From assembly GCA_046482545.1 (NCBI GenBank), contig JAWOEX010000032.1, positions 160,001 through 224,000 on the forward strand: a stretch of 64,000 bases of DNA, read 5' to 3'. Position 1 is the first letter of the stretch, and each line of letters starts with the position of its first letter. Position numbers and translations under genes: made by a program. The notes below the pieces were generated by a model. That model searched no databases and was not told where the DNA came from. It saw only the letters and a list, made by a program, of their open reading frames with translations. Below, in pieces: positions 23,622-39,608 of the stretch. The stretch comes from Candidatus Thorarchaeota archaeon (GTDB taxonomy: Archaea; Asgardarchaeota; Thorarchaeia; Thorarchaeales; Thorarchaeaceae).

Positions 23622-24797
23622 GTGGCTATACTGCCGAAAGCGTTTGTAACTGGGGCAGGAATGACGCGATTCGGTGTTCTTGAAGATTCAATCACAGAGC
23701 TGGCTGTGAATGCCGCTACTCGAGCGGTTGAGGATTCTGGCTCTATTGGCAAAGATATAGACTACTTGATTATTGGTTCTCAAAATCCTGCTGAATTTAC
23801 GGGAATTGACCACCTATCAACGCTCTTAGCTGATTGTCTAGGTATTGTGCCAGCAGCGGCTACCCGTGTCGAGACAGGACCTTCTTCTGGGGCGAGCGCT
23901 TTCGAAGAGGCATTTGCTCTGGTCAAGGCTGGACTTGCTGATTTGGTGCTTGTCATTGGTGTTGAAAAGATGTCCAAGGTGAATCGGAGTATCGCTTCCC
24001 GTATTCTGGCAAAAATGATGTCCTATGAAAATGAGACTCGATACGGTGCGACACCTGCTGCGTTGGCTGCTATGATGGCACGTCGGTATATGCACGACTA
24101 TGGCGTAACCCGGGAACAGCTGTCCTTGGTTCCGGCCAAGGCCCACCGAAATGGGCACAAGAACCACCTTGCACATTTTCAGAAGGAGATTACAGTTCAA
24201 GAGGTCACCCATTCCAGAAAGGTAGCCGACCCCCTAACACTGTTCGATTGCTGTCCCACTTCCGACGGAGCTGCAGCAGCAGTTGTTGTATCCGAGGAGA
24301 AGGCCCGCGAGTTGAGACTGCTCAAGAGTGCAGCAGAGGTCATAGGGGTAGGTCACGCAACAGACTACCTAGCCGTTCAACATCGCCAGTCGCTTACATC
24401 CATGAGCGCTACGATAGAGGCGGCTGCTCGTGCCTACGACATGGCAAAGATTGAGCCCCATGATGTTGATGTCTGCGAGGTTCATGATGCCTTTTCAGTA
24501 TTCGAGTTAATCAATATGGAAGATCTTGGATTGGCAAATCGGGGAGCTGCAATCCACATGGTGGCAGACGGCACTACTGAGGTGGATGGCAGTCTGCCGG
24601 TGAATCCTACCGGTGGTTTGAAGGCACGCGGCCATCCCACAGGAGCCACAGGCTTAGCACAAATACGAGATGCATTCAATCAGTTGATGATGAAGGCTCC
24701 CGAACAGTTGCAGACTGGCAGCCCCGAAGTGGCCTTGTGTCACAATATCGGCGGATTTGGCAACAATATCGTAGTGACAATCCTAGAACGGCGATAA
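23622..24797 (+). CDS. Thiolase-family protein (SCP2/archaeal type)
   Basis: GVEKMS, SDGAAA, EVHDAF, NPTGGLKARGHPTGATG, HNIGG. Confidence 0.92.
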   Translation: MAILPKAFVTGAGMTRFGVLEDSITELAVNAATRAVEDSGSIGKDIDYLIIGSQNPAEFTGIDHLSTLLADCLGIVPAAATRVETGPSSGASAFEEAFALVKAGLADLVLVIGVEKMSKVNRSIASRILAKMMSYENETRYGATPAALAAMMARRYMHDYGVTREQLSLVPAKAHRNGHKNHLAHFQKEITVQEVTHSRKVADPLTLFDCCPTSDGAAAAVVVSEEKARELRLLKSAAEVIGVGHATDYLAVQHRQSLTSMSATIEAAARAYDMAKIEPHDVDVCEVHDAFSVFELINMEDLGLANRGAAIHMVADGTTEVDGSLPVNPTGGLKARGHPTGATGLAQIRDAFNQLMMKAPEQLQTGSPEVALCHNIGGFGNNIVVTILERR

Positions 24798-24987
24798 ATT
24801 CTCGAAAAAGGCCTATTTCACCTGTAGAGTGCTTGGGATTTTCAGCATGCTATTCATCCACATATTTCTTATTAATCTCTTATAACTCTTGATTGTTATA
24901 GAGTGAGCCTACATGATGTTGTGTCATATCCGTCATCATGATGGAGCTATTGGATAGTACTGGTCCTTAATAAGGACAGGCGGTTTA

Positions 24988-26199
24988 GTGACTACCGATA
25001 GGGAGAACGGCTCTAAAACTGGAGCGAAGAGGAAAATGCCGAAAGGATTAGCGGTACTACGTTGGGATGATGAACTAGGCCCCGTTGTTACTGCCAAAAC
25101 ACCCAAGAAACTACAGCTTGGATTGGATCCAACAACAAGCATGCGGGTGTATGGAATTGCAACATTGGGCGAGACTGAGGAATCACAGAAACCTGGATTC
25201 AGTACCCTGAATTTCGATGAATTCAGAATGGCTGTTTATTATGGCGGTCTGAATATGCATCTAAAAGGTCTTCCTTCCATGGTATTTCTCGTATTGGAGC
25301 CCAGCGAAAATCCAGAGATCTACAAGAATGCTCTTCCTGAAATAGCGACTCAGATTTTCTTGAGCACTGAAGATGACGCCTATGTAGATATGCTTCCTAA
25401 GATGTATAGTCAACTAGCTCGATATACGAAGATGACGTTTGAGCAAAGACAAGCTTCCATTCTCAGCGATGATGTCCGTAGAGAGATACTCCGAACACTC
25501 ATGAGAGACGGAACCATGGAATCTTCGGACCTTGAACAGATAATCCTTGATGAAGTTGGAAAGAGGATTGATGTGGATATGGTTCTTCGCCCCTTGGTGA
25601 AGATGGGGATTATAGCGACTGGTTGGGTTGAAGGATTATCAACTGAAGTCATCTATCTGACGAGGGCAACTCTGCTATTGAGAAGAATCTCACGAAACAC
25701 TATAGCTGCTGTCAAGTCTGGTGCGCTCCCCCAGGATGTTGCAGATAGCTACCTTGAAGCCAGCAGGCGTTACCATCGCGATTATGTTGCCCGTCTACGC
25801 AAGGATTTGACTAAAACGATATGGACCGATGCGGAACAACTGGCTAACTTCATTCTTGATTTTGATGCTCATGACGTGATAGAGATTCTGCGCGAAGGCC
25901 CTCAGCAATTCGAGCACTTGCCTAGCCTGCTTGACATGACAAAATCGCAACTCAAAAAACAGGTGAAGCGTCTCGAACGAGCAAATATCGTATCCACTGT
26001 GAATGACGAGGAGGGTCGGGAACACGTGCTACTGAAAAGCAATCCCGAGGTAGCCACGGTTTATCCGGAATGGCTGATTCAACGTACTGTTGACCAGTAC
26101 AATGAGGAAATCATTCCTAGCAGACAAGCAATACACTATCTTGAGATACTGAAGAAATCACATCCAAGTCAAGCAGCAGCTACAGCGGAGGTTGAGTAG
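24988..26199 (+). CDS. Longin/uDENN-like N-terminal domain plus winged-helix domains
   Basis: GLAVLRWDDELGP start resembles Asgard longin/uDENN-like domains; two wHTH-like segments (LRPLVKMGII; VKRLERANIV); start may be ATG 25036. Confidence 0.6.
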   Translation: MTTDRENGSKTGAKRKMPKGLAVLRWDDELGPVVTAKTPKKLQLGLDPTTSMRVYGIATLGETEESQKPGFSTLNFDEFRMAVYYGGLNMHLKGLPSMVFLVLEPSENPEIYKNALPEIATQIFLSTEDDAYVDMLPKMYSQLARYTKMTFEQRQASILSDDVRREILRTLMRDGTMESSDLEQIILDEVGKRIDVDMVLRPLVKMGIIATGWVEGLSTEVIYLTRATLLLRRISRNTIAAVKSGALPQDVADSYLEASRRYHRDYVARLRKDLTKTIWTDAEQLANFILDFDAHDVIEILREGPQQFEHLPSLLDMTKSQLKKQVKRLERANIVSTVNDEEGREHVLLKSNPEVATVYPEWLIQRTVDQYNEEIIPSRQAIHYLEILKKSHPSQAAATAEVE

Positions 26200-29100
26200 A
26201 ATGAGTAGAAAAACAATTCAAATCGCGTTACTGGTATGCTTAGTAGCAACTTTGTTCCTAGTATCCAATGCTGTCACCCCCACTTATGATGCTTCGATGG
26301 CAGGGAAGACTCCAAGTGGCGAGTCTCTGCGAATCGTTGAGAGTCCTACCCAGATTGCTGGTGAACAGGACGAAGCCAGCTGGTGGAACTCCACATTCCT
26401 TTATCGGAGATATTACAATATCACGGAACCGGGAATCAGTGGTAGGGAATTTTCCCCGGTGCATCTGTACCTGACATTTGAAGATGACCACTGCTATGAT
26501 GGGTCTATCCGTGTAGGTTATTACGAGAGCGGTTCTTGGGAGATGATGCCACTTCAGGTTTGGAATATTACCTATCATCAAGGAACAGATTTCATTCAAT
26601 CTGCAAGTGTCTCTTTCAGAGTTAACGTGACCCAAGGAGCCACTCAGAAAAACTACTATATCTATTATGCAGATGACGATGTAGGTGCTGTTAGCTACCC
26701 TGATTTCTATCCTTTCACTTACACCACTTACACTTACTCTTTGATTAATCTTGTATCCTATTACGATAGCAACAATTACACAGTTGATATGTGGGATGAT
26801 ACAGCAGAAACCTGGGCTAATCCAACAGATGTGGATGCGTACTGGGAAGACAACAAGATAACACCAAATAATGTATCCCATGGAATGCTTGAGAAGTATG
26901 GCCGAGTTCGTTATGAACCAACCGCTGATACTGATACTTACTTCTGGGGGTTTTATAGGATACAGTCCAACTACCCGCTAGCAGTCTCGGTAGGACGAGG
27001 GGATGTAGGAATAGGTAATTCTGCCATGAACGATTGGTTTTCGGGTATGGATGAGCTCGGCCAAGGCCTAGGGACTCATTTCGTAATAGGTGGAGTAGAA
27101 GGGTTTCCTAATGATGACGAGGGAAGATACTGGGTGCAAGCTCATCATAATGATACAGAAGTCAGTATACTGACGAGCTCAGGAAGTGCTGATTCGGGTT
27201 GGTATTTCCATGATAACAGTGAGGTTACTTCTTGGCCAGCAGTGCTAGACGAAGGTGAGTATATTGCGAAGGGGAACGTTCACTACAGTACAGACATGGT
27301 TGTCAATTCATCAACCCCTGTATCCGTACGGTGTGGAGACCATGATGCTACTTATGGACCTCGAGATATAATGGGTTTCTATCCGTCAGTGGACAATCGT
27401 TTGGCTGGGGAGGAGTTCTACACTATAGATATGGGTGACTCCTCTTATGGAACGAAAGTGGTAAACGTGGGCGATGCTTCGTCTACCATTGATGTCTGGC
27501 GGAGAGCTGGTTCATCTAGCTGGACTCAAATAAAGAATGAGTATGTGTTGAATCCGAACGCCAGTTTCGAGATAGGCCCTGGTTCTTCAAGTTCTACTGA
27601 CCCTGAAGACATATTGCATATCAAAGCCAGCAGCGGGAGCAATCTGACTGTTAGGGGTATGTACAAACCTGATGATTTGAGCGATCATGGGGACTGGTGT
27701 CCAACTGTCGGAGGATACAGGTTCGGTACACATTTCAAATTAGAAGGCCTTCAACGGATGAAGTTCTTCATCCAAGCCACAGAAGCTGCTGAAGTAAACA
27801 TAACCGGGTATAATGACGCCAGTTATGAAATTCCTGCTGGGGGGGTCGCTTTCTTCATGCCTCAGTCGTCCTCATACACATTATACCACATTGAATCCAA
27901 TGCTACTATCAGCATAGCCAAGGCTGCTCGTTTCGATACTACATCACCGTATAAACCGTACATGGACCAAGGCTATGGCTGGGCTGTTCCGTGTTATGCC
28001 CCCGAAGGTGATGAAAACGGTCTACAAATCGAATACGGCGAAGAAATCAAGCTGTTTGAGTTTGATATCACAATCAAAGACCTTGATGGATTGCCAATTG
28101 AAGGTGTAACAGTCACTCTTCACAATAGCACGACTGGTGATGTCTGGACCGATGATAATGGTCTAAACCGCACAGGAACAACTGATTCCAATGGCCTTGT
28201 TGTGTTTGAAGGCCTCAACAATGCCACGTACGAAGTCCTTTCAGAAATCGATGCTGCAAGTTGGCTCACGACATCCTACGACCATGTCTGGATCCGCAAT
28301 ACTTCCGACCATTCGATTACTTCCACGGTTACCAGAGTAAACATCACTCTAGACGTGGCCTCGTTTGATATTTACCTTCATGACCTCATGGATGACCCGA
28401 TGAGTGACAACCCCGATGAGGACACAAATCTACGCCTTAACAATGGATCCTCCAATCCCGATGACTACATTGACCAAGGCCAGACCAATTCAACAGGCTG
28501 GGTAAACTTCTACAGAATACCACAGCATGATTACACAGTCTATGCTCGTTACGCGGGATCTCTAGGCTGGTCCTACACGTATACTGATTTGGAAAAATTC
28601 GCTAGCTGGTCAATAACTGCAGATGAATTCAATGGTGGAGGTTTTACTCATGAGTGGACCTTGCCACTGACGACATTGCATCTCGATGTAATCAGCTGGG
28701 ATGACCAAGCAGTTGACAATGCGAAGATTGTAATCGACAATCAGGATGAACCTGGCTACTCCATAACGAAATGGACCCATTCTACTGGTCAATATACCTT
28801 CACGCGTATTGTGAATGGGACTTGGAGTATCGAGGTTAGCAAAGACGATAATTACGATGACACTCCGACTGCCCTTAACGACACGGAATCAGCTACTGAC
28901 CTACAAGGCTACATAGCAAAGACAATTGAACTACCAATAAGTAGAATGAACATTAAGGTTACAACAACCGACGGCTGGACACATCCTGTTGTAAATGCAG
29001 ATGTTAATGTAACACTAGTAAATGGCACGCCTAGCCTTAATCCAATTGCTAGAGGAAAAACCAATGATACTGGTTGGGTTGTGTTCTACTATATTCATGG

Positions 29101-32100
29101 GAACATCAGTACGCCATATCCCAATCCTGTATCTTACAACCTTTCGGTAGTTTCGGGGGAACAATCAGAAACTCTTGAAGGAGCCCAGTGTGACTACAAT
29201 TGGACAGCATATAACTGGGTTCAGATAGATACTCCAACTTACTCCAATGAGTATTCTGAGCTTAATGCTACTCACTATATTGTGAACATTCAATGGGGAC
29301 AGAATTTCACTGATCTAGTTGTCGGTTGGTATGACAAGGATGGCGAAGGCACAACAAGCGAAATCGCCGATCCTACGTGGCTTAACATAACCATCAAGTA
29401 TGAGGGAATAACCTTCTTTGAAGATACCTGGAATGGCTCAGGCACTTGGATTACACGTGCTGGTTCAATCAACTACTCTGTAGTTGTTAATGCCTCAGCG
29501 TGGGGTCTCGATGTTATCGAAGGTCAGTATGAGATGATTGTAACAGCACATTCGGATGCTGGAGATCAAGACGATCCTGCTCCTATGACTATCTATGTAG
29601 ATGTTGCGGCTGCTTCAACCAGTGGAGAATCTGGAAGCGGAACGCTCATCACCGGTAATTATACCGATCATAATTCTCACATGTTCTGGCTCCATGATGA
29701 TACAAACGGCAAGAATGTGTCAGGACTAGATACGTTTAGCTGGAAAGTGAAATCTGGATCGCAAGAAGTATTGACTGGAGACTTGAGCAGTAATGGTGAT
29801 GGAACCTACAGTATTCTAGCCTCAAATCTGAATCAACTGGGTTCTGGATACTACAGCCTAACCGTCACATTAGAAAAACGGAACTACGTCAATCACACGC
29901 TTCTGATTGATTTAGAAGTCTATGACTTGCCTATGTGGGTTTCAGTCGATAGCTACCCTGATTACTCATGGGGTCCATTCTCACATAACATCAGTTTCTA
30001 CTACCGCGTACTATCTGACAATAGTACTCCCGATCTTAGTGACATTTCAGTCAACATCGAATGGATTGACAGTACAACTGGTGACTCATATCTCAACGTC
30101 TCAAAGATTCTCGATACCGAATCTTCAGGAGCAATAAATTACACATTCACTGGCGATTTAGTTCCCGTAGGTAGTTGGGATGTTGTAATTACGTGCCAGA
30201 AGGCGAATTATACCCTTGCGACTTCTTCACCGGCGTCATTTGAAGTATCAGCCGCACCTTCTACGGCGAGTGCAGTCGATTCTGGTCCTATTCTTGCTGA
30301 CTGGGCAAGTGAGGCAGTGTTTCAAGTTGACTACATCAGAACTGCAGACGCTCAGGGTCTTGAAGGTGCAGATATATCCCACAATTGGAATGGCACTTTT
30401 GATGTGGATTATGATGAGAATGGCCGTTATATCTTGACAGTTGGTACCACTGAAGAGTCGGGTAGTTACACAATAGATCTGACTGTATCACGTGCGAATC
30501 ATATGGCGGATTCCGTATCACTAAGTTTGGAAATTCGTGTTCCCTTGACTATCAAGACTGAATACGGATCAACAGAATCCCCACTTGAGGTCTACTGGAC
30601 TCGAACTTTCGATACTGAGATTCGTGTACTAGACAATTCGCGATTCAATACGACGATAACTGACGCTACAGCTTCCTATCATTGGGAATATGGATTCATC
30701 GTAGATCAGACTGGGGACCTCCCACATGTTAGTGGAGGTACATACAGGACGACATTGGATGCACAAGATGCTCTACCAATAGATGATTTGTACACAATCG
30801 AGATTACAGCCGAAAGACCTGGCTCCATGAATACGTCTCGGACCATATACTTGCGAATACTGGAGGTCCCGAACGAGATAGTCCTGAAACAAGATTATTT
30901 TGATAGGTACTACGGAGATACATTGAACATATCATTCTATTGGAACAATACACTCGATAATATTCCAATCTCCAGCCCAAATTCAGCTTGGATAGAGATT
31001 TGGGGTAGGAGTACTAACATAACAACTGGCGTGAATTATGGTAACGGCACTTACAGCTTTGAAGTGGACACTAAATTGCTGGAGATGTACCCCGAATCTG
31101 GTTTCAAGTTGTATACCTTCAAGATAGAAATGAGTGCTGCTGGATACGCAGAATACGAACCTCCCTCCTTGGCTGTCTTGGTGCAGGAAACACCTACAAG
31201 AATGGACGTTGGAGACCTTCCTGCAGTAGAGTGGGGCGAGCCTCTGACAATAAGAGCGAATCTCACCGATACAATTCATGGCGCATTTGTTTGGGAAGAC
31301 GCTGTAGTTGAGCTAGTCTATGGTGACAGGCGGAAAACAATGGAACCCTACCACAATGGGACGTTCTATGTAACCATTGAGACGGAGAATTACTTCTCGG
31401 CACGCGACCAACCATACGATTTGTCAATAGAATACACTCTACCAAACTACGTAGATGGCCATGTTGAATTACAGATTACGGTAAATCCAAAAACAGCGGA
31501 TATTAAAATGGGCACAGTCGAGCTGAGAAATAACACATTCGAGGGTACTTGGTCTGATGAGGTTGGAATTGCTTTTACTGTTCCTGATATAGAGGAGCAA
31601 GCAAATGCAACATACTATTGGCTTGGATTCGAGGAAGTAAATGGTCTTTTCAACTATGATTCCTACTACTCCGAGTACACCGGTACAATAGATACAAGCA
31701 AGGTGCCAGCAGGCGTGCGAACGCTTAGGATTGCTGTGTTCAAGGACAACTACACAATCTCCCCCTTCGACATCGTGATGACACTTAATCCGTTAGAGGC
31801 GGAGATCTCGACAGCTACTACCAGCCTTTTGAAGATCCACACCGTTGAGACAACGGCTGAGCTATCCTTTACACTAACTTACGATGAGAAGATACTGGAT
31901 GCTGCAACAATTCAGTTTGATTGGGGCGGTATACAGAGAACGGCTTCCTTTGTTGAAGGTGAATATGTGTTTGAGTTCAACCCGTCTGTTGAAGACATCG
32001 AGGTACCAAAGACGTACCTCCTGAACTTCACGACTCAGATTCAGAACTACTCTGTTGATACAGTTTCAGTGCCTCTGACGATGCTGGCCCCAACTGAATT

Positions 32101-33403
32101 GACTGGGCCGGCTGTCTATCTTGAAGAAGACCAATCAGCAACGGCCTACTTCAGATACTGGGACACATACAATAATCGTCCCGTTGAGGATGACCCAGAT
32201 GCAAACCTGTCAGTAGGTGTATACTTCCCTGGTTCTGACAGCTCTACTGATGTTGAATTCAACGGGACTCATTATTACCTCAGCTTCGAAGCTGACGAGC
32301 TTGGTGAGGCTCAGACAGATCCATATGAGATTCGGCTTACGGCAACTGCGACTGGATACCAGAACTATACAGCGACCTCAGAAGATGAAGCAATTACTGT
32401 GAATGTCTACGTGAGTCCACCAACATACAACATACCGCTGGTAGGTAGGATTCAGAGGAGTTTGGTGAACCTCGTACTGATTATGTTTGGGCTTTTCATA
32501 TTGATTGTTGGTGGTGCAGTTGGAGTACAGCGATGGAGGCGACCCCACGCTATCAAGCAGATTGAAAGTGCCATCAGTGACATGGAAGAGAACAAGACTG
32601 CCAAGGTTAAGGATATCAAGTCAATGGGCATGGTGGTCTCGGATCTACTGGCTCCGGGTCTTGCTGAACTCGATATGAAGGCACCCACAATTGACACGGG
32701 TCCGGAAGTTGAGTTTGAGGAGGGTCTCGGGGAAGAAGCAGAGGATCTCCTTGGTGAACTGGACGCACTTGATGAGATTAGTAAGGAAGAGCCCGCTGCT
32801 GTTGAAGAGAGTACAGACTATGAAGCACAGCTTGAGGCCGAGCTTGAAGCAATGGATGAGGAGGAAATACAGGTTTCTGATATTCCAGGTATCGGTCCTA
32901 CCATTGAGGACCGGCTCGCGAATGCAGGGTACACTACTGTGAGTGCTCTGTCCGAAGCTGACCCACTTGTCTTGGCTGAGGTAGAAGGCATTAGTGAGAA
33001 CAAGGCCGAACAAATTGTAGATGAAGCTAGGGCGATGGTATCAGAAAATGTGGAGAAAGACATTAAACCCGAAGCAGAGGACGAGGAGCCCCCTCCTGAA
33101 GAAGATGTGGAGGAGACTCTCCCGGAGAACGAAGCAGACGCTGCCTTGCCCGAAGAAAACATGGAAGATGAACTCCCGGAAGGGGAGTCCGAGGATGTTC
33201 TCTCTGAAGAGTCTGAACTCAGTGATGATAAAGCAACAGCTGAAGAAGCTGAGCCAGAGATAGAGAAACCCAAGACCAAGCGTGAGCTCATTGAGCAGCT
33301 CCCAGATGAAATCAAGGAAACCATGGGAGACGATGAGATTAGAAAGTTATCCAAGCGTGAGCTTGAGGCCTTGATTGAGGGTCAGGAGGGCTCAGAGGAG
33401 TAG
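26192..33403 (+). CDS. Giant 2403-aa single-pass surface protein with cytoplasmic helix-hairpin-helix domain
   Basis: Signal peptide; DUF2341-like WWNSTFLYRR...YYIYY; IgGFc-binding-like and prealbumin/Ig-like repeats; TM LVLIMFGLFILIVGGAVGV; HhH IPGIGPTIEDRL..G.....L...EGISENKA; acidic tail. Confidence 0.85.
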   Translation: MSRMSRKTIQIALLVCLVATLFLVSNAVTPTYDASMAGKTPSGESLRIVESPTQIAGEQDEASWWNSTFLYRRYYNITEPGISGREFSPVHLYLTFEDDHCYDGSIRVGYYESGSWEMMPLQVWNITYHQGTDFIQSASVSFRVNVTQGATQKNYYIYYADDDVGAVSYPDFYPFTYTTYTYSLINLVSYYDSNNYTVDMWDDTAETWANPTDVDAYWEDNKITPNNVSHGMLEKYGRVRYEPTADTDTYFWGFYRIQSNYPLAVSVGRGDVGIGNSAMNDWFSGMDELGQGLGTHFVIGGVEGFPNDDEGRYWVQAHHNDTEVSILTSSGSADSGWYFHDNSEVTSWPAVLDEGEYIAKGNVHYSTDMVVNSSTPVSVRCGDHDATYGPRDIMGFYPSVDNRLAGEEFYTIDMGDSSYGTKVVNVGDASSTIDVWRRAGSSSWTQIKNEYVLNPNASFEIGPGSSSSTDPEDILHIKASSGSNLTVRGMYKPDDLSDHGDWCPTVGGYRFGTHFKLEGLQRMKFFIQATEAAEVNITGYNDASYEIPAGGVAFFMPQSSSYTLYHIESNATISIAKAARFDTTSPYKPYMDQGYGWAVPCYAPEGDENGLQIEYGEEIKLFEFDITIKDLDGLPIEGVTVTLHNSTTGDVWTDDNGLNRTGTTDSNGLVVFEGLNNATYEVLSEIDAASWLTTSYDHVWIRNTSDHSITSTVTRVNITLDVASFDIYLHDLMDDPMSDNPDEDTNLRLNNGSSNPDDYIDQGQTNSTGWVNFYRIPQHDYTVYARYAGSLGWSYTYTDLEKFASWSITADEFNGGGFTHEWTLPLTTLHLDVISWDDQAVDNAKIVIDNQDEPGYSITKWTHSTGQYTFTRIVNGTWSIEVSKDDNYDDTPTALNDTESATDLQGYIAKTIELPISRMNIKVTTTDGWTHPVVNADVNVTLVNGTPSLNPIARGKTNDTGWVVFYYIHGNISTPYPNPVSYNLSVVSGEQSETLEGAQCDYNWTAYNWVQIDTPTYSNEYSELNATHYIVNIQWGQNFTDLVVGWYDKDGEGTTSEIADPTWLNITIKYEGITFFEDTWNGSGTWITRAGSINYSVVVNASAWGLDVIEGQYEMIVTAHSDAGDQDDPAPMTIYVDVAAASTSGESGSGTLITGNYTDHNSHMFWLHDDTNGKNVSGLDTFSWKVKSGSQEVLTGDLSSNGDGTYSILASNLNQLGSGYYSLTVTLEKRNYVNHTLLIDLEVYDLPMWVSVDSYPDYSWGPFSHNISFYYRVLSDNSTPDLSDISVNIEWIDSTTGDSYLNVSKILDTESSGAINYTFTGDLVPVGSWDVVITCQKANYTLATSSPASFEVSAAPSTASAVDSGPILADWASEAVFQVDYIRTADAQGLEGADISHNWNGTFDVDYDENGRYILTVGTTEESGSYTIDLTVSRANHMADSVSLSLEIRVPLTIKTEYGSTESPLEVYWTRTFDTEIRVLDNSRFNTTITDATASYHWEYGFIVDQTGDLPHVSGGTYRTTLDAQDALPIDDLYTIEITAERPGSMNTSRTIYLRILEVPNEIVLKQDYFDRYYGDTLNISFYWNNTLDNIPISSPNSAWIEIWGRSTNITTGVNYGNGTYSFEVDTKLLEMYPESGFKLYTFKIEMSAAGYAEYEPPSLAVLVQETPTRMDVGDLPAVEWGEPLTIRANLTDTIHGAFVWEDAVVELVYGDRRKTMEPYHNGTFYVTIETENYFSARDQPYDLSIEYTLPNYVDGHVELQITVNPKTADIKMGTVELRNNTFEGTWSDEVGIAFTVPDIEEQANATYYWLGFEEVNGLFNYDSYYSEYTGTIDTSKVPAGVRTLRIAVFKDNYTISPFDIVMTLNPLEAEISTATTSLLKIHTVETTAELSFTLTYDEKILDAATIQFDWGGIQRTASFVEGEYVFEFNPSVEDIEVPKTYLLNFTTQIQNYSVDTVSVPLTMLAPTELTGPAVYLEEDQSATAYFRYWDTYNNRPVEDDPDANLSVGVYFPGSDSSTDVEFNGTHYYLSFEADELGEAQTDPYEIRLTATATGYQNYTATSEDEAITVNVYVSPPTYNIPLVGRIQRSLVNLVLIMFGLFILIVGGAVGVQRWRRPHAIKQIESAISDMEENKTAKVKDIKSMGMVVSDLLAPGLAELDMKAPTIDTGPEVEFEEGLGEEAEDLLGELDALDEISKEEPAAVEESTDYEAQLEAELEAMDEEEIQVSDIPGIGPTIEDRLANAGYTTVSALSEADPLVLAEVEGISENKAEQIVDEARAMVSENVEKDIKPEAEDEEPPPEEDVEETLPENEADAALPEENMEDELPEGESEDVLSEESELSDDKATAEEAEPEIEKPKTKRELIEQLPDEIKETMGDDEIRKLSKRELEALIEGQEGSEE

Positions 33404-33631
33404 TGAGCCCAGGAGACATAAATTCGGAGAAATGCTGGGTATGAACGTGAAGTTGGGATTTTACGGGGAAACAAGTTGCATAGATGCTAATGATATCTTA
33501 TCGCATCGCCCACATCACCCCCCTTCCTGGATGTATGACAAACAGGTAAACCTCAAAACACGATATCCGAATAATTTGCACAACTCCCAGTTCAGAATCA
33601 CAATCAGGGTGCTCAGGACGTTGATCGAGTA

Positions 33632-34513
33632 ATGATCAGAGAAATCCATGTGTTCAAGGACGGAGAGAGTCTGTTCGAGGACGTGATAGTTCCAAACAAA
33701 AACTTGGATACTTCAGCAGTTATGCAGCTAGTCAGTTCTTCAGCACAGAAACTTCAGGAATGGAACATCGACAATATGGAGATTGAGCGATACCGCTATG
33801 TCTACATGAACAGTCATGATACCCAGTTCATTCTTACTATGGACCGTCAGGCATCGATTCAGAAGGTTCACGAAGCCCTCATGAATATGGTTTCAAAGTT
33901 CATGACTGCGTTCGAGAGTGTGCTTGAAGGTGACGAGTGGAAATCCACGGATTTCTCCCCATTTCAAGCTGGTTTCAGGAATATCGTAGGTCGTATACCT
34001 GCCAAAGTGTGTTTGGCCGGCCATGGTGGTACTGGAAAAACAACTCTTCTTGAGCTTGCTACCCTCCCCTCACGCGGACCTCCACAGGACTACGTACCAA
34101 CATTTTTCGGCGATAAAGCCCTTCTAAAGGCCGATTTTGATCCTTATGTGTTCAGTGTGTTTGATCTTGGAGGACAGGACAGATTTGTCCAAGAATGGGG
34201 AAAAATAATCCGGGCTGGTAGCATGGTCGTATTGGTTACGGATTCAACTCCCGATAATATGAAATGGACAATGCGAGTAGCATTTCCCGTATTGAAGAAC
34301 GAGTTGCCTTATGCACGCATGATTGCAATAGCAAACAAGCAGGATTTGAAGGGAGCTCTCTCTCCCCAAGAAGTATCACGGAGACTAGGTGTTCCGGCTT
34401 ACGGAATGCAAGCAAATCAACGCGATTTCAGGCAAAGATGGCTTTCTCTTCTCAAGAGTCTTGCCTTTGAAGAGATTGACTTTGCAATAGTTTCGGATGT
34501 TATAACCGAGTAG
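33632..34513 (+). CDS. Longin domain fused to Arf-like small GTPase
   Basis: N-terminal adaptin-like longin pattern; G1 GHGGTGKT, G2 PT, G3 DLGGQ, G4 NKQD. Confidence 0.88.
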   Translation: MIREIHVFKDGESLFEDVIVPNKNLDTSAVMQLVSSSAQKLQEWNIDNMEIERYRYVYMNSHDTQFILTMDRQASIQKVHEALMNMVSKFMTAFESVLEGDEWKSTDFSPFQAGFRNIVGRIPAKVCLAGHGGTGKTTLLELATLPSRGPPQDYVPTFFGDKALLKADFDPYVFSVFDLGGQDRFVQEWGKIIRAGSMVVLVTDSTPDNMKWTMRVAFPVLKNELPYARMIAIANKQDLKGALSPQEVSRRLGVPAYGMQANQRDFRQRWLSLLKSLAFEEIDFAIVSDVITE

Positions 34514-34527
34514 GAGACTAGGAAAAC

Positions 34528-35085
34528 ATGAGCAAGAAAATGAAAAGTGTCATTGATGAAGAAGAGCGCAAGAGGCTAATTGAAGAGATTGGCCGAATGA
34601 AAGACACTCTTGATAGCTTCAAGTATGGATTGAACTTTGAAGATTTTGCTGATCAGATTTTCAAAACTGTAAATCGCCAGACAGCAGCCATCAATACACT
34701 GGACCGACGCATGAACGAGATTCTTACAAGGATGGAAAGACTGGAAGAGCGATTTGATGAAGGAATACGCGTTACTGTCTCAGGTGTGTCTGAGGACGAG
34801 ATTGGGGATACTGGGGGGAGACCAGAGGTGAAAGTCGAGAAGACTATGACAACAACCTCTCAGGAGGAACCAGAAATCGAGGGGTCTGATGCCGAGCTGA
34901 AACAGAAGGCAAAAAAGATTGAGACAAAAATTAATCGCCTTTTTGAAAGAGAAAATGCTCTCTCTGAGATGGCTATGAATGATCCAGCTGGTGCTGAGGA
35001 ATATGAAAAGAAAGCAAGAGTAGCTCGGCAGATGCGCCAAGATTTGGAAGAGAAACTTGATGTAATCAAACAGAAATTAGAATAG
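34528..35085 (+). CDS. Coiled-coil protein
   Basis: Heptad-rich charged helices; GGAG RBS. Confidence 0.7.
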   Translation: MSKKMKSVIDEEERKRLIEEIGRMKDTLDSFKYGLNFEDFADQIFKTVNRQTAAINTLDRRMNEILTRMERLEERFDEGIRVTVSGVSEDEIGDTGGRPEVKVEKTMTTTSQEEPEIEGSDAELKQKAKKIETKINRLFERENALSEMAMNDPAGAEEYEKKARVARQMRQDLEEKLDVIKQKLE

Positions 35086-35089
35086 TGTA

Positions 35090-35503
35090 ATGGCGGAGAT
35101 AAGAATGGGGATTCTTGATTGGTTGAAACGCAAACTCAAGAGAACGGAAAAGAAACCGGAGAAAGGAGAAATACGGAAGAAATCTAAAACAGCTAAGCCA
35201 GAGAAGGTTGAATCCAAAAAAACAGCTACGGATTTTCCCTCTTCGACAGAGGGTGTCTCTGTGGAAAGGCGGGAACAAGTGGGGTCATTAGTTGTTGAAT
35301 ATGAGCGCTTGGTTGAGCGACGTCAGCAACTGCAGGCTGAGCGCGGAGAACTAACAGAGAAGCTCGAGCGTGGTGAGCTTTCGTCTACCGAATTTAGGAA
35401 AGCATTGATGTCCAAGATTCAGGAGGCCTCGACCGTCTCAGACAAGATAAAGAAGACTTCATCAAAACTAACAGAACTCGGTTATCGTGGAGTGCTGCGC
35501 TGA
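35090..35503 (+). CDS. Small coiled-coil protein with SHOCT-like end
   Basis: MGILDWLKRK amphipathic start; LERGELSSTEF motif. Confidence 0.65.
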   Translation: MAEIRMGILDWLKRKLKRTEKKPEKGEIRKKSKTAKPEKVESKKTATDFPSSTEGVSVERREQVGSLVVEYERLVERRQQLQAERGELTEKLERGELSSTEFRKALMSKIQEASTVSDKIKKTSSKLTELGYRGVLR

Positions 35504-35516
35504 GGGGTGACAGGAA

Positions 35517-36971
35517 TTGGCTGATCGCGATGATGAATCCCCAGAAGACTCGGCAGAAGAAATCGAGAAGAAAACTACGGAACTATTGAAGGGAGCGACG
35601 GGAGAATCCACTTCTTCGAGTGATGAGCGAGATGCAAAACAAACCTTTTCTACTGAGGAAATCTCGCAGGCGACAGATGAATCAGCTGCAGGCCAAGTCG
35701 GAGAAACTTTCGCGCGTATCCAGATTCGTATGGAGGACATACTCGCCTCTGTTGAAGATGCTGCCCAGTCAGTTGAACCTAGTATTGATGAGAAAGTTAG
35801 CGAAGTCCTAGAGATACTTAGCAAGCGTCTAAGGGGCGCAGGATTGGGTGTTTTTGCTACGAGTGCTGTAAGCATAGTCCGCGAAGAAGTTGAGAAAGGA
35901 TTGTCGGGATCAGCCACTATGAATCCCATCTACCGTTCGGTTAGCGAAGGGAAGAGCGAGGTCAGGGATATTGTAACGAAAGCGAGCCGTGGAGCGACTC
36001 GTGCTATTGGTCGTTCTACAGGAGAGCTGCAGGGGAAGCTCTTCCAGATGTACACACGAGTTCAAGAGTTAGAAACGAATACTGAAGACTTGAGGGCCCA
36101 GATTAGGAGATGGAGATCTCGCGCCAATGAATTAGAAGATTTGGCCCAATCAAAAGACGAGTCTCTTAGCCGGTACGAATTGCGCGTTTCTCAGATGAAA
36201 GAGGATCAGGCTGAACTGAATACCAAGCTAGAAGAGAAGGACCAAGAGATTTCTACGTTACGCGGACAGCTCAGTGAGGCGAAATCTCAGATTGAACAGA
36301 AAGACGCCCTTATTGCATCCCTAGATTCCGCGGAAGAGATGGTTGAAGACTATGAAGAGAAAATGAACGAGTTATCAACGATTAAAGGTCAGCTAGCTGA
36401 ATACGAAGAGACACTTTCTCAGAAGGAAGAACGGATTGAGACTCTTGAGACAGAATTGACAGGTCTTAGAGAAGAAAACGCCAGACTCAATAATACAGTA
36501 GAGAATCTCAGTGAAGAAATCGCCTCTGTGCGTGGCAAGTCAAAAAGCCGGAAATCAGAAGTCGAATCTCTACAAGAACAACTTGAAGAACTCAGGGCTC
36601 GCTGGGAAATGCTCTATCAAGTAGCAGAAGAGGAACCTGACTTCAAAGCCTATTTCCTCATAGCTGACAAGGAGCACACCTGGTTACCCTTGACACATCT
36701 ATCGAAAGCCTTAGGTATTCCCACAGTCAAGCTTCGCCGTGATTTGCAGCGATTTGTCAATGTGGGCCTAATTGAACTGGAAGGGAATAAAGTCAGACCT
36801 CGCAAACTTTCAGAAGTCGCTGAGGAAATTGCTGGAACCAAGAAGAAGGTATTCGAAGACACACAGGAATCCATTATTGGAGATATTTCAGAAGCCAACG
36901 AAGACGAAAATAGCGACGAATCTGTATCATCTAGTAAAGAAGTCACAAGTGACCACACTGAATCATCTTAA
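35517..36971 (+). CDS. Long coiled-coil protein with C-terminal winged helix
   Basis: ~200-aa heptad stretch, then LTHLSKALGIPTVKLRRDLQRFVNVGLIE; no Walker motifs. Confidence 0.75.
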   Translation: MADRDDESPEDSAEEIEKKTTELLKGATGESTSSSDERDAKQTFSTEEISQATDESAAGQVGETFARIQIRMEDILASVEDAAQSVEPSIDEKVSEVLEILSKRLRGAGLGVFATSAVSIVREEVEKGLSGSATMNPIYRSVSEGKSEVRDIVTKASRGATRAIGRSTGELQGKLFQMYTRVQELETNTEDLRAQIRRWRSRANELEDLAQSKDESLSRYELRVSQMKEDQAELNTKLEEKDQEISTLRGQLSEAKSQIEQKDALIASLDSAEEMVEDYEEKMNELSTIKGQLAEYEETLSQKEERIETLETELTGLREENARLNNTVENLSEEIASVRGKSKSRKSEVESLQEQLEELRARWEMLYQVAEEEPDFKAYFLIADKEHTWLPLTHLSKALGIPTVKLRRDLQRFVNVGLIELEGNKVRPRKLSEVAEEIAGTKKKVFEDTQESIIGDISEANEDENSDESVSSSKEVTSDHTESS

Positions 36972-36973
36972 CA

Positions 36974-37333
36974 TTGGAGGTGACATCTGATTTGGCCCGA
37001 ACACTTGAAGAAGTAATGAGATTCCTACAGAATTATACGGTGGCATGGCACCACTGGCTGATACTGCTGTCCCTTCTGAAAACAGGGGGATCAGCTACAA
37101 AGAAACAGATCTTTCCCGTATTCAAGAAGGAGGGGTTTTCTACTCATGCAATCGAAGGCATATTCGAACGAGACTTGGAAGACCTTGGTGAGGCGGTCGA
37201 AGTTCAAGGCGGCATCGATGAGCTCTGCGATAGTAGTATGATTTACCTTACAAATGATAAGAAATTCAGGACTTTCCTCAAGAAGAATCTCAAAACAGTT
37301 GTAAGAATGCTTAAGCAAAGAAAAACGAAATAG
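36974..37333 (+). CDS. Hypothetical protein
   Basis: ORF packed at the end of the cluster. Confidence 0.65.
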   Translation: MEVTSDLARTLEEVMRFLQNYTVAWHHWLILLSLLKTGGSATKKQIFPVFKKEGFSTHAIEGIFERDLEDLGEAVEVQGGIDELCDSSMIYLTNDKKFRTFLKKNLKTVVRMLKQRKTK

Positions 37334-37379: not shown

Positions 37380-37700
37380 TTGAGAATTAAGGGGTCAATA
37401 TGTCCAACTTGCGATTATGCGGTGGTTCCCCCTCGTCGTATATGCCCAAAGTGTGGGATAGGAAATACTCAGATGAACCAAGCATCTTTTTCAAATATAG
37501 GAACTATCGAGTCCTTTACGATGTCGAGAATGCCCCCTGATGGTTTTGGTGATGCGCTGTTTCTTGCGCTCGTAAGACTCAAGGAGGGCCCATTGGTACT
37601 ATGTTCAGCGAGTAGTGATTACTCGGATCATATTGAGATCGGTTCTAAAGTAAGGGTTGAGAAGAACAAGGAAGGACTCTTAACCTTCCGTCCAACCTAA
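37380..37700 (+). CDS. DUF35 Zn-ribbon/OB-fold protein (thiolase partner)
   Basis: CPTC..PPRRICPKC, GTIESFT, ALVRLKEGP, IEIGSKV. Confidence 0.9.
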   Translation: MRIKGSICPTCDYAVVPPRRICPKCGIGNTQMNQASFSNIGTIESFTMSRMPPDGFGDALFLALVRLKEGPLVLCSASSDYSDHIEIGSKVRVEKNKEGLLTFRPT

Positions 37701-39041: not shown

Positions 39042-39608
39042 ATGGAGAAGAAATCGATGGTAAAGATAGAGTACATAATGGTTTACACTCGGGCAGGGTT
39101 ACCAATCTACAGTAAGTGTTTCGGCAGTTTCTGTAAGACATCCATGAAGGACCCAGAGCTTTTGACTGGTTTCCTATCAGCATTAGAGACAATTCCAACC
39201 ACCATATCCGAAGATTTGACCCTAGATGCTGTAAAGATGGGGCCCACAGATATGCGCTTCACAAAAACCACTCCCGAAGGTCATTCTATAGTTGTTGGCT
39301 TGTCCAAGGACAGAGAGGATGTTGCCCAAAGTGTTTTCGATGCTGTCCAGGAGACCTTGCATCAAGAGCAATTCGCAGATGTTGATTGGACTGCCGTAAC
39401 TCGAGGCAATATGAATAGATTTGAAGAAGAGCTTGTGAGATCAAGAATACCGGAAGCGATGCACGAATACGGCGGCTTTGAAGATAAGTGCCCCCTTGAG
39501 GATCAGTGTCCCATGCATACCAATGCTAAAATGTCTCGTAAACAGAGAATTTGGGGTGCTATCAAGGATAAATATCAGGCGCTGAAGAAAAGAATGGCCG
39601 GCGAGTAA
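39042..39608 (+). CDS. Stand-alone longin-like protein
   Basis: IMVYTRAGLPIYSK, LLTGFLSAL longin-like pattern; C-terminal CPLEDQCPMH. Confidence 0.65.
   Translation: MEKKSMVKIEYIMVYTRAGLPIYSKCFGSFCKTSMKDPELLTGFLSALETIPTTISEDLTLDAVKMGPTDMRFTKTTPEGHSIVVGLSKDREDVAQSVFDAVQETLHQEQFADVDWTAVTRGNMNRFEEELVRSRIPEAMHEYGGFEDKCPLEDQCPMHTNAKMSRKQRIWGAIKDKYQALKKRMAGE

Follow-up and report, generated by a model that had tools for sequence, protein, structure and literature searches.

Why is a giant cell-surface protein of an Asgard archaeon encoded together with a longin-type adaptor, a small GTPase, coiled-coil proteins and winged helices? This question is raised by a cassette of seven genes, here called A to G, in a 64,000-nucleotide (nt) stretch of DNA from a Candidatus Thorarchaeota archaeon (assembly GCA_046482545.1, contig JAWOEX010000032.1, positions 160,001-224,000 of the forward strand). 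This whole stretch is referred to as the window, and the genome carrying the cassette is 99% complete. Here, we found that the adaptor-like product of gene A very probably binds to the cytoplasmic tail of the giant protein B, and this link is well supported by natural gene fusions, by sequence conservation and by a passing complex model. The module is real and apparently undescribed, and we infer that the GTPase encoded by gene C works together with the adaptor. Seven co-oriented genes had been reported at 24988-37333 in a preliminary description of this DNA, and all seven open reading frames (ORFs) were confirmed on the plus strand:

24988-26199, plus strand: gene A, 403 amino acids (aa; probable start 25036, giving 387 aa), longin, then two winged helices and a helical C-terminal part; adaptor resembling NPRL2/NPRL3
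26192-33403, plus strand: gene B, 2403 aa (probable start 26201), giant type-I surface glycoprotein
33632-34513, plus strand: gene C, 293 aa, longin (residues 1-120) fused to an Arf-like small GTPase
34528-35085, plus strand: gene D, 185 aa, putative N-terminal coiled coil, acidic linker and C-terminal helical hairpin
35090-35503, plus strand: gene E, 137 aa (probable start 35105), basic/hydrophobic N-terminus and helical hairpin
35517-36971, plus strand: gene F, 484 aa, long coiled coil with a C-terminal winged helix at 36567-36821
36974-37333, plus strand: gene G, 119 aa (probable start 36992), stand-alone winged-helix protein

The contact between A and the tail of B is supported by natural fusions. 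A search of 1.84 billion representatives returned 166 relatives of A, and among them nine are fusions in which an ectodomain, a transmembrane helix, the tail motif and A follow each other in one polypeptide, while two more join A to the tail without a transmembrane helix. The source labels of these fusions are mostly Promethearchaeota/Lokiarchaeota and Helarchaeota, and three of the five fusions traced to their contigs lie close to genes of Arf/Ras-type GTPases. An interface between A and the cytoplasmic tail of the giant protein, which the preliminary description had suggested looking for, was also predicted by structural modeling. The complex of A with B residues 2113-2172 scored 0.86 and the best of three controls 0.57; of 80 solved complexes 58 attained the score mark applied, and of 110 mismatched pairs 2 did, counts that carry over approximately because our own alignments were used. 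In the A-tail runs at least 88% of the contacts agreed, and the partner had a predicted local distance difference test value (pLDDT) of at least 83. The tail is predicted to dock on the C-terminal helices of A, at residues 340-378 and 211-262 (numbered from 25036) and away from the longin, which is left free. The nearly invariant A residues P344, L369 and L372 fall within this predicted interface. As a separate observation, one operon-like run (L102:3911-9458) comprises four small genes, a longin-GTPase gene, a longin-only relative of A and an A-tail fusion without membrane helix, and an actin gene is located about 7.6 kb upstream of it.

B had been described as a 2403-aa transmembrane surface protein, and its signal-like N-terminus, single transmembrane segment and glycosylation sequons bear this out and make it a type-I protein. 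A hydrophobic signal-like N-terminal stretch, an Ig-like stalk, one transmembrane helix near residues 2087-2112 and an acidic tail can be distinguished. The ectodomain involves 58 N-glycosylation sequons (about 22 expected) and the tail one. Pfam recognized CarboxypepD_reg, SdrD_B and SpaA domains, and no Pfam match was obtained for the N-terminal region in five copies; its likeness to IgGFc_binding is an Atlas lead only, on 16% of the cluster members. Two features of the tail were mapped as follows:

32528-32707, plus strand: juxtamembrane cytoplasmic motif of B (residues 2113-2172, about 55 residues), predicted docking site for A
32873-33031, plus strand: helix-hairpin-helix domain in the acidic tail of B (Pfam HHH_5, E 5.6e-12)

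The juxtamembrane motif is the best-conserved part of B (59% vs 38% for the stalk). It was present in 48 of 61 Asgard genomes and recurs across Asgard classes beneath very different ectodomains. In the window genome six proteins carry it (five beyond B), and relatives have one to seven such proteins. The helix-hairpin-helix is specific to the window copy, since none of 24 other tails involved this domain. Thorarchaeota genomes (G061-G065) each encode several proteins with the same helix-hairpin-helix in acidic regions, and the domain appears to be a mobile add-on. The C-terminal end of B (about 33266-33388) carries a short helical motif, which was also found in 9 of 24 other tails; by eye it can be seen in both giants that replace the cassette in two relatives (see below), and in one locus (L036) it forms a separate small ORF.

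What kind of protein is A? Its structural model (pLDDT 92.5) shows a longin and two winged helices, and the C-terminal part is helical. Of the longin/uDENN-like+wHTH assignment made before, the longin fold was recovered, and two winged helices are present instead of one. Compared with DENND1A (6ekk), the longin alone aligned (model residues 1-132, Z 9.9), and the remainder modeled as winged helices. GATOR1 8fw5_C was the best Foldseek match (E 3e-4), and in a VIA comparison the longin aligned with GATOR1 8fw5_B at a Z of 11.4 (root-mean-square deviation 2.8, 121 aligned), tied with a lokiarchaeal longin. Secondary structure and fold matches indicate the NPRL2/NPRL3 architecture of a longin followed by tandem winged helices, but the arrangement of these domains differs from NPRL2/NPRL3, since the near full-length Foldseek match had a TM-score of only 0.27. 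A motif of the type WD-x3-GP is located at the first longin hairpin and reads WDDELGP in the window copy and in all Thorarchaeota orthologs; across classes the glycine was present in 28 of 28 homologs, and the proline was mostly lost (kept mainly in Thorarchaeota). In alignments of 94 and 28 homologs the longin shows no arginine that is invariant or nearly so, and the conserved arginines of A are confined to its C-terminal half. Because this arginine-finger test failed, A was not filed as a GTPase-activating protein (GAP). Its winged helices are net acidic and have acidic wings. No family-level name was returned by Pfam and NCBIfam for A, D, E, F or G. Members of the A family are fused to varied C-terminal parts, including a SIR2-like domain with TPR repeats (P0036, P0067), and in the latter fusions the adaptor may bring a defence-like enzyme to surface proteins.

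The assignment of C as longin-Arf-like GTPase was borne out by longin profile matches, by Pfam Arf and by intact G motifs. Its N-terminal domain matched the longins of delta-COP and AP-2 sigma/mu (best E 5e-4), and the GTPase domain matched Pfam Arf (E 1e-11, above cut-off) and Arf1 in the PDB (E 6e-26). The motifs GHGGTGKT, PT, DLGGQ and NKQD (G1-G4) are intact in all 40 aligned Thorarchaeota copies. However, the N-terminal amphipathic helix, which is a defining feature of the Arf family (10.1101/2024.02.28.582541), is lacking, since residues 1-120 form the longin, and for this reason C was not filed as a true Arf. When the longins of A and C were compared as profiles, no match was obtained at E < 0.05. 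The window genome has three A paralogs, and each of them adjoins a longin-GTPase gene. One paralogous A-GTPase-coiled-coil triple is present in this genome (C20:73448-76200), and 3.3 kb from it a 186-aa membrane protein with the tail motif and hardly any ectodomain is encoded (C20:79524-80084); the spacing of the two is similar in about ten relatives.

Is the cassette one unit? The conserved neighbourhood claimed for it was confirmed in that 25 of 39 relatives' loci keep the order as far as their contigs reach, and this order is not a product of chance. These 39 loci, all fetched with C, further include 12 with A-C-E-G only, one with A-C-E-F-G, which represents an intermediate still holding F, and one sister-family locus with C-D-E-F-x-G, which lacks A and B; the sister family keeps B-A at a separate place. 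In seven reduced genomes examined B, D and F were not found elsewhere. When the reduced state is mapped on a five-gene tree, a minimum of three changes is needed on branches with strong support, and the tree of C gives the same picture. Retained genes stand between B, D and F, so that each loss amounts to three deletions, and this ties D and F to B. The cassette is not a fixed set of seven genes, since A-C-E-G can persist when B, D and F are missing. An ortholog of A was not found in eight of 36 family members (85-97% complete, one of them a single contig), nor were B, D, F and G; one of the eight retains E alone, and in three the flanking thiolase and acyl-CoA dehydrogenase genes lie less than 1 kb apart. 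Six states of the slot between the thiolase and DUF35 genes were distinguished, among them one that is empty and one with an unrelated giant protein. The cassette is dispensable and its slot is variable. In other loci, pairs of A and a giant gene have been doubled as units with differing ectodomains (L086:4400-20000, L083:1051-11820). L037 and L042 also belong to these tandem duplications, with two pairs or two giant genes of different ectodomains in a row.

In two cassette-less relatives the slot is occupied by an unrelated membrane protein of 3,638 or 3,349 aa (L104:3353-14269, L105:3725-13774). These replacement giants lack the tail motif and have the same upstream element (see below) on their 5' side, so that the slot is possibly an exchangeable surface-protein site. 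One reduced-locus lineage (L054-L057) encodes a giant with an unrelated ectodomain and a B-like tail motif just 5' of the thiolase gene, and this protein is a possible replacement partner for A. L055 is labelled Hermodarchaeota, but it falls inside a Thorarchaeota clade on both trees and is probably mislabelled.

Outside this family, homologs of A were present in 18 of 24 genomes. In most non-Thorarchaeota neighbourhoods fetched, A has a large type-I membrane protein, a longin-GTPase or both as neighbours, with differing flanks, but this adjacency count is partly circular because the tail profile was built partly from A-adjacent proteins. Less circular is the case of a small tail-bearing membrane protein, which about ten Thorarchaeota genomes encode at a distance of 5-7 kb from a second paralog of A. 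The large tail-bearing proteins have ectodomains of 610 to 2,400 residues and share the motif right behind the membrane helix. A profile constructed from non-Thorarchaeota tails alone finds some of the Thorarchaeota tails, albeit weakly (best E about 1e-4). In a set of 23 genomes from other orders, in which kin are not independent counts, 11 had tail and A, six A only, six neither and none the tail only. A giant-A-C-E-F-like run was found in one distant closed Atabeyarchaeia genome (L078), and in one other Asgard family a short F-like protein is encoded three genes after A-C.

The sequence patterns of D and E, the two small coiled coils of the preliminary description, indicate helices, and their putative coiled-coil fold is assigned from sequence. 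They do not appear to be homologs of each other (hhalign probability 1%). The N-terminus of E is conserved in the alignment (consensus MGLFDxWRRKK), basic and hydrophobic, and is a possible membrane anchor. Homologs of E adjoin A or C in other Asgard families. E was also considered as ESCRT-I steadiness box, but the profile matched generic coiled coils only. The long coiled coil and winged helix attributed to F were upheld, the latter by two matches: it matched the second winged helix of A (profile probability 79%) and an ArsR-type domain (E 6e-4). The option of F as SMC/Rad50-like protein was rejected, since its coiled-coil matches are generic and far below cut-off. Shorter F-like homologs adjoin A-C in two other Asgard families. 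G had been called hypothetical, but its model (pLDDT 88.6) and fold matches, winged helices of middling Z (best 8.6), identify it as a winged-helix protein; an Atlas search of G gave leads of at most 0.90 only. The winged helices of F and G are net basic (11 basic vs 7 acidic residues in F, 19 vs 14 in G) and resemble ArsR/PadR/MarR folds.

The genes are closely packed. A and B overlap by 8 nt, and gaps of 228, 14, 4, 13 and 2 nt separate B/C, C/D, D/E, E/F and F/G, respectively. Homologs and Shine-Dalgarno positions suggest shorter true starts for A (25036), B (26201), E (35105) and G (36992). In most full loci the Shine-Dalgarno sequence of B sits in the last codons of A, and B begins 0-1 nt past the A stop. 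Upstream of A one further feature was recorded:

24853-24875, plus strand: promoter-like 19-base element, consensus ATCCAAGATTTTCTTATTA; in relatives 70-240 nt 5' of the A start

This element was found with at most five mismatches in 26 of 28 loci, compared with a shuffle mean of 0.27, although the consensus was chosen from the same loci. With a matrix constructed without the window copy, the site at 24853-24875 ranked first genome-wide. Since the element is conserved upstream of A and is the top match of the genome, the cassette probably has its own promoter, and the element may act as such. Its use as regulon marker for other surface proteins was not supported, and no conserved palindromic operator was found 5' of A or C. 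A sigma-70 promoter and terminator scan gave nothing over chance, but this model is unsuited to archaea. In four metatranscriptome runs from salt lakes (two studies), contigs cover the locus piecewise and bridge A/B, C/D and D/E. As proof of transcription or of a single transcript they were discounted, because the flanking genes have coverage as well and carry-over of DNA is possible.

How might these parts work together? We tentatively favor, as a reading that could well prove wrong in its later steps, a GTPase-gated platform that anchors surface proteins, with a chain leading from the docking of A on the tail via a switch of A and C to a scaffold. By its sequence, B is a single-pass glycoprotein with an exchangeable ectodomain. 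The two short helices behind its membrane helix would bind the C-terminal helices of A and keep A at the inner membrane face. The longin of A would stay free and may pair with the longin of C, as in GATOR1, folliculin and TRAPP, forming a switch at the foot of B. This A-C step is suggested by gene linkage and by the dimers that longins generally form to hold GTPases (PMC10933270). Here, A would act as non-catalytic scaffold, not as arginine-finger GAP. The GTP cycle of C might then assemble or release a cytoplasmic scaffold of D and F, which would be required only together with B, and E may supply the membrane-binding helix that C lacks. The outcome would be control over the place and timing of surface-protein clustering or anchoring, by analogy with GltJ-MglA-MglB of Myxococcus. 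Where B has been lost, A-C-E-G probably works in trans for other surface proteins that carry the tail. If A does regulate C at the foot of a surface protein, platforms of longins and GTPases were in use at the cell surface before endomembranes existed. A wider version of this idea, in which a pan-Asgard receptor-adaptor-GTPase system combines swappable giant ectodomains with a common docking motif and the NPRL2/3-like longin directly regulates the longin-Arf-like GTPase, is possible but doubtful; if true, it would be an archaeal forerunner of the GATOR1, folliculin and CSW platforms, acting at the cell surface in cell contact.

Apart from the partial circularity of the adjacency count, several findings weigh against the platform. 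An unrelated control peptide scored 0.57 with A, so the groove of A accepts other helices. The predicted tail interface of A is equally conserved in loci without B, and therefore A is not dedicated to B; it probably also serves other tail-bearing proteins, of which the window genome has five more. D and G were found in Thorarchaeota only among the genomes searched, and the cassette has no motor or cytoskeletal gene. Finally, within Thorarchaeota the synteny of the flanking metabolic genes equals that of the cassette, and because of this, synteny inside this group is weak evidence on its own.

The alternatives have to be judged by the same data. If B sensed a partner cell or surface, A and C could relay this signal and G or F could bind DNA, possibly at the upstream element. 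The net basic, ArsR/PadR/MarR-like winged helices of F and G would suit such outside-in signalling, as would the locus-specific conserved element and the fusions of A to varied C-terminal parts. However, the winged helices of A are acidic, a fused A cannot quit the membrane unless it is cleaved, no conserved palindrome was found and in G005 and G031 the element is retained although G, F and A have disappeared, so that we consider this option unlikely. Alternatively, A might read the tail motif as a cargo-sorting adaptor or proto-coat and deliver giants, together with C, to protrusions or vesicles. That the motif occurs on up to seven proteins per genome, that the longin of C is closest to delta-COP and AP sigma/mu and that the A interface is kept after loss of B are in line with sorting. 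Nevertheless, permanent tail-A fusions better suit a stable anchor than a recycling adaptor, the cassette encodes no coat scaffold and C lacks the amphipathic helix of Arf, which makes this scenario quite unlikely.

It is also conceivable that only A and B, and separately A and C, are physically linked and that the remainder is a co-regulated, exchangeable island rather than one machine. The six states of the thiolase-DUF35 slot, the separation of B-A from C-D-E-F-x-G in the sister family and the 228-nt gap between B and C fit this picture, but the recurrent loss of B, D and F in several lineages, each time by three deletions of alternating genes, and the giant-A-C-E-F-like run in Atabeyarchaeia render it quite unlikely as well. 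The trans-envelope machine envisaged in the preliminary description retains its longin folds, its conserved neighbourhood, with genes that are not scattered, and its predicted A-tail interface, but two of its variants fared less well. One of them, coupling of the chromosome to the envelope or its segregation, would use winged helices and the helix-hairpin-helix of B to tether DNA to the membrane under GTPase control, and four winged helices, one long coiled coil and one helix-hairpin-helix are indeed encoded by the cassette. Since the helix-hairpin-helix is copy-specific and missing in the 24 other tails, the winged helices of A are net acidic, the SMC-like matches of F are generic and the cassette was not found in 8 of 36 family members, several of them near-complete and three with adjacent flanking genes, we regard this coupling as very unlikely. 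The other, a specific ESCRT-II-like role of the winged helices, obtained no specific support; the winged-helix and coiled-coil matches are generic.

Asgard archaea hold dozens of small GTPases and longin proteins. Their surface proteins are complex (PMC9834061). A resembles GATOR1 NPRL2/NPRL3 and the related folliculin-FNIP and C9orf72-SMCR8 longin complexes in having winged helices behind a longin, and its closest fold matches are GATOR1 chains; the hairpin at the start of its longin carries WD and GP motifs of the kind described for longin GAP complexes (PMC12290439). A further common trait is the association with a small GTPase at a membrane. In contrast to GATOR1, the longin of A lacks an invariant arginine and its GP proline occurs mainly in Thorarchaeota, the cassette contains neither DEPDC5 nor a second NPRL subunit, the partner GTPase is a longin-Arf-like fusion instead of a Rag dimer, and recruitment would proceed via the tail of a surface protein. 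Asgard longins with GP motif and arginine finger have been published (PMC12290439). An NPRL2-like family is described in most Thorarchaeota and a few lokiarchaeal genomes (bioRxiv 10.1101/2020.10.19.343400), and Asgard GTPases fused to longin domains appear in two other papers (PMC10933270, PMC11914678). A and C are probably members of these published sets, but the passages searched contain no link between the sets or to a surface protein. In MK-D1, GTPase and longin genes as a rule do not share operons, which makes it difficult to match regulators (PMC10933270). Here, the locus supplies a testable partner set consisting of a GTPase, a GATOR1-like candidate regulator and a membrane docking site with residues to alter. 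The parts are small, soluble and expressible, and fused versions exist in lokiarchaeal genomes, a class with cultured members.

A functional analogy, for which no homology is claimed, exists with the Agl-Glt system of Myxococcus (GltJ, MglA, MglB), where cytosolic motifs of a membrane protein bring in a small GTPase together with a roadblock-family regulator and one more partner protein, and this recruitment switches an adhesion complex on and off (PMC11135422). Unlike Agl-Glt, the cassette has no motor or MreB-like gene, involves a single membrane, places an adaptor between tail and GTPase, and uses a longin-fused GTPase. Compared with Asgard ArfR/AArf and ArfL (10.1101/2024.02.28.582541; PMC11914678), C has its best PDB matches in Arf1 and relatives and shares DxGGQ and NKQD, but it carries a longin in place of the amphipathic helix, and its P-loop lacks the Arf aspartate. 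Concerning ESCRT-I/II (PMC10936438), the tandem winged helices of A match ESCRT-II weakly (3cuq_A, E 3e-3) and E has a short helical hairpin, but no Vps4, ESCRT-III or ubiquitin gene was recognised in the cassette. The preliminary description knew of no account of this combination, and our literature search, to which subscription papers were outside coverage, likewise found no paper describing it; the individual parts are known.

Some minor observations concern the surroundings of the cassette. A 188-aa gene two genes beyond it (39042-39608) is longin-like by eye, has no Pfam match and is present in many relatives' loci. In a further locus (L110:5461-6649, genome G034), an A paralog and an E homolog are broken by frameshifts, which are possibly sequencing errors. 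The cassette separates a thiolase-fold gene (23622-24797), whose product has RVETGPSSG at the expected catalytic cysteine motif, from its ChsH2/DUF35 partner (37380-37700), and in one cassette-less relative (L106) these two genes overlap by 4 nt.

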